Virus record (IMG/VR): IMGVR_UViG_2859783438_000004
Direction: 5' to 3' (one strand)
Source: a virus
Taxonomy: Duplodnaviria; Heunggongvirae; Uroviricota; Caudoviricetes
DNA: 11,180 bases
A program made the position numbers and the translations under genes. The notes below the pieces were generated by a model that made no database searches, was not told the DNA's origin, and saw only the letters and a program-made list of their open reading frames with translations. This document shows, piece after piece, positions 3,153 to 3,428 of this stretch; positions within the stretch are counted from its first letter, which is position 1, and every line of letters begins with the position of its first letter.

Positions 3153-3428
3153 TTAACTGTTTTTGCCTGGATACTGTCTTCGAGAATGCACAATATTTAC
3201 TACTTCTATGCTTGATGCTGTTACTCGGTAAAGGATGATGTAGTTAGGATGAGTTACAATTTCACGAAGACCAAGAACTCGCTCGCTTGGAGGATACAGG
3301 TAAGGATGCTCTGTGAGCGGCAAAACGGATGTTTCAATTCGAATTTTCATTCTGCGTGCTGCCGCGGGATTTTCTTTAGCTATGTAGCTACGATCTGGCG
3401 CAAATCATCACGAGCAGATGGTAGCCAT
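3153..3428 (-). pseudogene. parE: ParE/RelE-family toxin ORF interrupted by two consecutive in-frame TGA codons after codon 6; only the C-terminal 65 codons (3153-3350) are open from an internal ATG
   Basis: Frame from ATG 3428 reads MATICS-stop-stop-FAPDRSYIAKENPAAARRMKIRIETSVLPLTEHPYLYPPSERVLGLREIVTHPNYIILYRV..; the YIA-x-(D/E)NP-x-AA and NYIILYRV segments are ParE-like. Stops are at 3410-3405. Full frame would be 91 codons. Confidence 0.65.

Follow-up and report, generated by a model that had tools for sequence, protein, structure and literature searches.

A ParE2-type toxin gene of a Shigella sonnei 4303 prophage is frameshifted, as deposited, by one missing base beside intact antitoxin and regulator genes

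Gene content of the locus

The window, a stretch of 11,180 nt of tailed-phage DNA (IMG/VR record IMGVR_UViG_2859783438_000004), holds a PaaR-PaaA2-ParE2-type three-gene module that forms part of the immunity region of a lambdoid/Rac-like prophage (Table 1). The three-gene arrangement and all of its component categories have been described before. The HTH_3 regulator gene and the antitoxin gene downstream of it are on the same strand, 19 nt apart, and the operon closes with an intrinsic terminator downstream of the toxin gene, the predicted fold of which had an energy of -15.1 kcal/mol (z = -3.2) that none of 200 shuffled sequences equalled. Both partner genes of the toxin are intact. The exact antitoxin protein was found on at least 1000 contigs (6355 index blocks), mostly named Shigella sonnei, and the regulator protein (3656-4156) is likewise identical to one seen on at least 1000 contigs.

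Upstream of the regulator, the -10 element of a promoter-like sequence ends 7 nt before the ATG at 4156, a spacing that fits a leaderless transcript. The regulator reading frame could also be extended to a GTG at 4186 in place of the ATG at 4156. On the divergent side the gene order is ydaS-like, ydaT, O-like and DnaC-like, with the replication genes following the immunity region. Downstream of the terminator, a poly-A tract (3068-3075) varies in length from A7 to A9 among S. sonnei assemblies, a variation that is not private to the source record of the window; true slippage could explain it, as could noise in the other assemblies.

Table 1. Features of the module and its surroundings in the window
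Feature	Position	Strand	Description and basis
Intrinsic terminator of the regulator-antitoxin-toxin operon	3110..3144	-	9-bp stem GAACCACCU/AGGGUGGUU, then UUUUUCUU
parE2-type toxin gene, frameshifted	3153..3442	-	290 nt here, 291 nt when intact
Residual 65-aa ORF (Met32-Ser96 of the toxin)	3153..3350	-	PF05016 profile 31-89 only, 32.6 bits
Residual stub ORF, 20 codons	3380..3442	-	MLPVLWLPSARDDLRQIVAT; direct reading; TAG 3382-3380
Site of 1-nt deletion, one C of a CC pair, codon 19	3386..3387	-	alignment with intact alleles
TGA TGA of the original prediction	3405..3410	-	codons 11-13 CGT GAT GAT (3412-3404) read out of frame
PaaA2-type antitoxin, 64 aa, intact	3442..3636	-	PF21217 E=3e-23; PaaA2 3zbe E=1e-23
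PaaR-type/CI-like HTH regulator, 166 aa, intact	3656..4156	-	HTH_3; annotated WP_001343764.1
Promoter-like TTCAAA-17-TAGAAT	4164..4192	-	consensus match alone; 3 found, 2.8 expected
Divergent ydaS-like gene, 87 aa	4268-4531	+	assigned by position alone
ydaT, 141 aa	4528-4953	+	PDB 8bt1 E=3e-70, 3c4r E=4e-79; PF06254
BsuBI/PstI-family restriction endonuclease gene, interrupted	10485-11180		junction 11164/11165; 360 aa in sister strains

Reading frame, start and family of the toxin gene

The toxin gene starts at ATG 3442-3440, which overlaps the antitoxin stop codon as TAATG and is preceded, 4 nt upstream, by a ribosome-binding site of sequence GAGGTG. From this ATG the gene reads MLPVLWLPSARDDLRQIVA, and its frame encodes the true N-terminus of a ParE2-type protein before a stop codon is reached. 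No single open reading frame covers the whole ParE domain, as the frame from ATG 3442 ends after 20 codons, and the gene is a pseudogene as deposited. With one base restored, it encodes a 96-aa protein that matches the PF05016 (ParE_toxin) profile from end to end (1-89/89) with 64.1 bits, for a cut-off of 23 bits, and whose alignment to E. coli O157:H7 ParE2 (PDB 5CW7, 5cw7_B; residues 1-93 to 1-93, E=7e-37) has no gaps. The full-length profile match and the gapless ParE2 alignment of the repaired protein identify 3442 as the natural start.

The original prediction had taken ATG 3428 as the start of the toxin and had described a frame knocked out by two adjacent TGA codons, unusual enough to suggest a deliberate or strongly selected inactivation. 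Its reading of the letters was accurate: on the minus strand, ATG 3428-3426 opens a frame that gives MATICS, TGA at 3410-3408, TGA at 3407-3405 and then FAPDRSYIAKENPAAARRMKIRIETSV...NYIILYRV... as far as TAA 3155-3153. It was also correct that ParE similarity in this frame begins 5' of the internal ATG at 3350, with a match to PF05016 profile positions 16-89; that similarity is genuine, and the true start is 3442 and not 3350. A start at Met 3428, in contrast, does not hold, since that codon lies in the wrong frame and direct reading found no Shine-Dalgarno sequence before it.

The same change of frame accounts for the stop codons. The nine bases CGTGATGAT that contain them are unchanged in all intact alleles examined, where they are read as CGT GAT GAT and encode Arg11-Asp12-Asp13. 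The gene's own frame therefore has no stop codons in place of sense codons here, and alignment to ParE2 showed no residue missing. The two TGA triplets are adjacent because the repeated GAT GAT codons are read one base out of register, and stop codons are to be expected in an off-frame reading. With no in-frame stops, the argument from a double stop to a selected knock-out fails. The impression that the region between the Met and the YIA motif was a few residues short likewise arose from use of the wrong Met, as the repaired protein is gapless against ParE2 from residue 1. The literal translation of the 3428 frame is all that speaks for two adjacent nonsense mutations, but this is not the frame of the gene upstream of about 3386, and the 3428 codon has neither the Shine-Dalgarno sequence nor the TAATG coupling found at 3442. 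We therefore give this explanation practically no credence. The case is a clear example of how reading the downstream frame upstream of a frameshift yields phantom stops and a phantom start.

A single missing base in codon 19

Comparison with intact alleles located the lesion in codon 19, where GTA GCC TAC has become GTA GC TAC between 3387 and 3386; the frame shifts and translation ends at the TAG at 3382-3380. This is the sole lesion in the toxin gene. Apart from the one gap, the whole gene is base-identical to those of E. coli RMDEC465 and FDAARGOS_944, two complete genomes in which the locus is more than 99% identical and an intact toxin is annotated as WP_014334020.1. This allele, a RelE/ParE family toxin of S. 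sonnei and some E. coli, has the same DNA save for one base and is flanked by the same antitoxin and regulator genes; it encodes 96 aa, whereas the window, short of one C in codon 19, yields no 96-aa product. WP_014334020.1 was found on at least 1000 S. sonnei or E. coli contigs. The proposal that the toxin had been inactivated while the antitoxin and repressor were kept is thus upheld for the sequence as deposited, but its mechanism has to be replaced by one deleted C with no nonsense mutation, and the meaning attached to it falls with the mechanism.

The deletion was seen in the window and in CP029794.1 alone, and in none of 19 other fetched copies of the allele. In the antitoxin look-ups, the toxin was an intact 96-aa protein in all places shown except CP029794.1. 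A look-up of the exact 65-aa product returned only SRR9189601, which carries a different lesion. A pattern spanning the deletion and admitting either allele (N{0,1}) gave 0 matches among GTDB species representatives and JGI metagenome contigs, a result that is silent on the prevalence of both forms.

Predicted consequence of the lesion

An AlphaFold (AF2) model of the intact toxin (pLDDT 90.7) consists of strand beta1 (residues 4-6), helix alpha1 (8-24), helix alpha2 (26-39) and strands beta2-beta4 (60-86). In this model the deletion maps to the middle of helix alpha1. The 20-residue stub is accordingly too short a part of the modelled domain to be expected to fold as ParE, and the gene is predicted to be null for the toxin.

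An alternative is that the gene is still expressed, either by a programmed -1 frameshift that restores the toxin or as a functional 65-aa fragment from ATG 3350. The 65-aa frame is open and matches the C-terminal two-thirds of PF05016, and re-initiation 30 nt past the stop codon of the stub is conceivable. On the other side, no Shine-Dalgarno sequence is present before ATG 3350 on direct reading (upstream sequence AGAAAATCCCGCGGCAGCACGCAGA), and according to the model the fragment, from a start midway along alpha2, would be without beta1, alpha1 and half of alpha2. In Vibrio cholerae ParE2 this alpha-hairpin is the gyrase-contact and toxicity determinant (bioRxiv 10.1101/2025.07.24.666505). 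For the frameshift, no slippery heptamer of the form X XXY YYZ was found at the shift site GTA GCT ACA within ATC GTA GCT ACA TAG, and all relatives, on at least 1000 contigs, encode the toxin in a single frame. Programmed frameshifting and transcriptional slippage were both rejected as candidates, since the site is not slippery, the run has just two bases (CC) and alleles are normally intact in a single frame. Continued expression in either form is very unlikely, and the 65-aa remnant is probably either not made or inert.

Source of the missing base

CP029794.1 (GCA_002073875.2), the chromosome of S. sonnei 4303, is 100% identical to positions 442-6636 of the window (6195 bp) and carries the same deletion. 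It is a phase II laboratory strain whose history spans more than 60 years (PMC6201595). SPAdes 3.1 was used to assemble its 200-bp Ion Torrent PGM reads, at a reported coverage of about 100-fold, and scaffolding was guided by a reference (PMC6201595). The typical error of this platform is a single-base deletion within single-base runs: deletions account for 77% of the cases in which it disagrees with Illumina data, and single-base indels that reach the consensus are mostly in homopolymers, with a mean length of 5.5 (PMC12046094).

To set the deletion against the quality of its surroundings, CP029794.1 was compared with eight sister chromosomes over 10 kb on either side. The toxin deletion was the sole private small difference in about 19 kb, and no private SNP was present outside IS1 in that interval. 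All five IS elements in the 20-kb stretch are hollow: three are IS1 copies, which lack 338, 338 and 304 bp, and the other two, of the IS3 family, are reduced to their ends. At these sites the sister strains have full-length IS elements, flanked by the same target duplications. CP029794.1 is therefore structurally artefactual and clean at the base level. Although described as complete, it is a reference-guided assembly of 200-bp Ion Torrent reads with systematically shortened IS elements, and its single-base frameshifts and mini-IS elements need a read check before biological reading.

Two explanations of the missing base have to be weighed against this background. In one, the toxin gene of the strain is intact and encodes all 96 aa, and an Ion Torrent under-call of the two-base run was kept in the SPAdes consensus. 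Both the type and the direction of the error match the platform (PMC12046094), the deletion is unique to one assembly while the intact protein is encoded on at least 1000 contigs, the rest of the gene matches the intact allele at 100% identity, and the assembly is visibly unfinished, with holed IS elements and a chromosome of 4.54 Mb compared with 4.8-5.0 Mb in sister strains. However, the run is only 2 bases long, while runs of about 5-6 are where consensus errors cluster (PMC12046094), and the reported coverage was about 100-fold (PMC6201595). Nor did the surrounding sequence of about 19 kb show any private length error at some 60 homopolymers that are at least 5 nt long, one of them an A8 tract, or any other private single-base indel, whereas two other assemblies compared show 4-5 private single-base indels each. 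An under-call is thus a substantial possibility, to which we give somewhat less than half of our belief.

In the other explanation, the deletion exists in the DNA of this old, much-passaged laboratory strain as a private loss-of-function mutation. Consistent with this, the prophage has a private mutation elsewhere, an IS3-family insertion at 11164/11165 in the BsuBI/PstI endonuclease gene, and independent toxin-only lesions with antitoxin and regulator intact are found in other isolates. Against it, the deletion is in no independent assembly, and the surrounding 19 kb has no private SNP that would mark divergence at the base level. By a rough reckoning, the chance of an error and that of a real lesion in a 291-bp gene are of the same order, about 10^-3, and the local private differences, one event in about 19 kb, are too few to calibrate mutation against error. 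With about 3 broken copies of the allele to at least 1000 contigs that have it intact, the count slightly favours a real mutation. Of the two explanations, we consider a real, strain-private mutation somewhat the more probable.

If the mutation is real, the toxin gene, as the last gene of the PaaR-type regulator, PaaA2-type antitoxin and ParE2-type toxin operon, would have lost one C of codon 19, in helix alpha1, in S. sonnei 4303. Toxin translation, presumably coupled to that of the antitoxin through TAATG, would now end after 20 residues; no ParE fold would be made and the strain would be null for the toxin, while the antitoxin and regulator would be untouched. These two genes would persist because the regulator is the CI-like repressor of the prophage and the antitoxin is harmless without the toxin. 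The lesion would then be one of several independent toxin-only lesions in this module family.

Comparison with characterized modules

The closest characterized system is the paaR2-paaA2-parE2 module of CP-933P, a cryptic prophage of E. coli O157:H7, of which the window holds a heteroimmune relative. In both, the three genes have the same order on one strand, the toxin start overlaps the antitoxin stop, and the module lies opposite ydaS/ydaT in the immunity region with the replication genes next. About two-thirds of the positions in the repaired toxin are identical to CP-933P ParE2 (5CW7, 5CZE, 5CZF), and the antitoxin belongs to the same family as CP-933P PaaA2 (3ZBE), without a DNA-binding domain. 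A promoter geometry of the leaderless type may also be shared, on a consensus match only in the window. A leaderless transcript is reported for lambda cI as well as for paaR2. In CP-933P, PaaR2, YdaS and YdaT act as analogues of CI, Cro and CII, paaR2 is leaderless, and the paaA2-parE2 pair is addictive, with bistable regulation also reported (PMC8630535). By analogy, the ydaS-like gene and ydaT of the window would be the Cro and CII analogues of its immunity region. The window differs from CP-933P in its frameshifted toxin, in its S. sonnei host and in its prophage mosaic; among 5426 complete E. coli genomes, no collinear match covered more than 54% of the window.

The regulators of the window (3656-4156), of an O157-type paaR-paaA-parE locus (2379-2840; either PaaR2 or a paralogue) and of a sister-allele locus (2382-2780) were compared. 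The N-terminal domain of the window regulator is similar to the DNA-binding domain of lambda CI (E=3e-9) and cannot be aligned to that of the O157-type regulator, whereas over the C-terminal 46 aa these two regulators share 61% identity; overall identity to the sister-locus regulator is 39%. The difference in the N-terminal HTH from the O157-type locus implies a different immunity specificity, and the comparison suggests that operator specificity (heteroimmunity) may have been swapped on a common regulator scaffold. The conserved C-terminal block of about 46 aa can be written ...FxAFPxEDQxxMLxxMKxKKExMDRxVARWLAAQ, next to an N-terminal HTH that is unrelated or divergent.

The toxin fold (PF05016), an N-terminal alpha-hairpin with a three-stranded sheet, is also that of RK2 ParDE and Vibrio cholerae ParDE2. 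In canonical ParDE systems the antitoxin has a DNA-binding domain and autoregulates, unlike the antitoxin of the window, which is without such a domain. In modules of the window type, transcription would be controlled instead by the separate CI-like regulator as part of the prophage switch, as in CP-933P (PMC8630535).

Other toxin lesions in the module family

Three further independent toxin lesions were found in related copies of the module, and in each the antitoxin and regulator are still called intact. In SRR9189601, which has the same allele, a 17-bp tandem duplication (CGCGGCAGCACGCAGAA twice) follows codon 31 (4482-4515 of the fetched stretch) and leaves a 37-aa stub and the same 65-aa reading frame as in the window. 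In S. sonnei GCA_001253215.1 (CXDD01000391.1, 1615-1809), a 157-bp internal deletion with CAG microhomology at its junction has removed codons 44-96 (P0079). The third, a frameshift of about 2 bp near codon 41 of the sister allele (P0082; toxin at 3001-3180 of the fetched stretches), is present in three samples, E. coli GCA_904842245.1, ERR3372533 and SRR33717835. As in the window, the toxin is broken and its partners are kept, with lesions that are different and independent. Real knock-outs of the toxin thus appear, from these sequences, to occur, although they are rare relative to the intact form.

Decay that begins with the toxin is expected because loss of the antitoxin first would be lethal, and this catalogue of toxin-only lesions fits the expected order of decay for addiction modules. 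Pseudogenes are especially common in Shigella, and the lesion of the window makes an ordinary pseudogene or is possibly a sequencing error; a frameshifted copy of a characterized toxin gene in one strain is routine and carries little weight by itself. A further reading is that the deletion is real and that the ParE2-type toxin and the endonuclease were both lost through recurrent selection to disarm addiction modules while their antidotes were kept. If so, orphan antitoxins might counter related ParE2 modules as anti-addiction factors. The case for selection draws on two events in one strain and a handful of lesions elsewhere, and we consider it unlikely.

IS elements and neighbouring genes

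The BsuBI/PstI-family endonuclease gene runs for about 226 codons and is then interrupted by one end of an IS3-family element (TGAAGTGGCACACTGA...), so that the window reads ...NPTVLCEVAH*. The adjoining methyltransferase gene (8656-10488, 610 aa) is intact, and the insertion is private to strain 4303 among the nine strains compared. The endonuclease is a second case in the strain 4303 prophage in which the poison half is lost and the antidote kept.

Two IS1 copies in the window (108-537 and 1782-2211) are 430 bp each and both are without an identical internal block of 338 bp, which creates a 119-aa InsA-InsB fusion ORF in each (163-522 and 1837-2196). The target duplications that flank them, AACCGGAAA and AAACGGTTG, have the normal length of 9 bp. 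A third IS1 of CP029794.1 (about 1165-1560 of the fetched stretch) has a hole of 304 bp. The shortening most likely arose in the Ion Torrent/MeDuSa assembly, when contigs were joined end to end across repeats. A real mini-IS1 mobilized in trans was rejected as an explanation, given holes of two sizes, IS3-family elements that are hollow as well and full-length copies in sister strains. A search for the shortened-IS1 junction in complete E. coli genomes was uninformative, as the halves of a normal IS1 merge into one place.

Between the two IS1 copies, the Rha-family regulator gene (516-1304) and its neighbours (538-1781) are absent from some sister strains. Some sister strains have a single IS1 followed by the sequence that flanks the outer side of the first copy, an arrangement that would fit loss of the 538-1781 segment by IS1-IS1 recombination.
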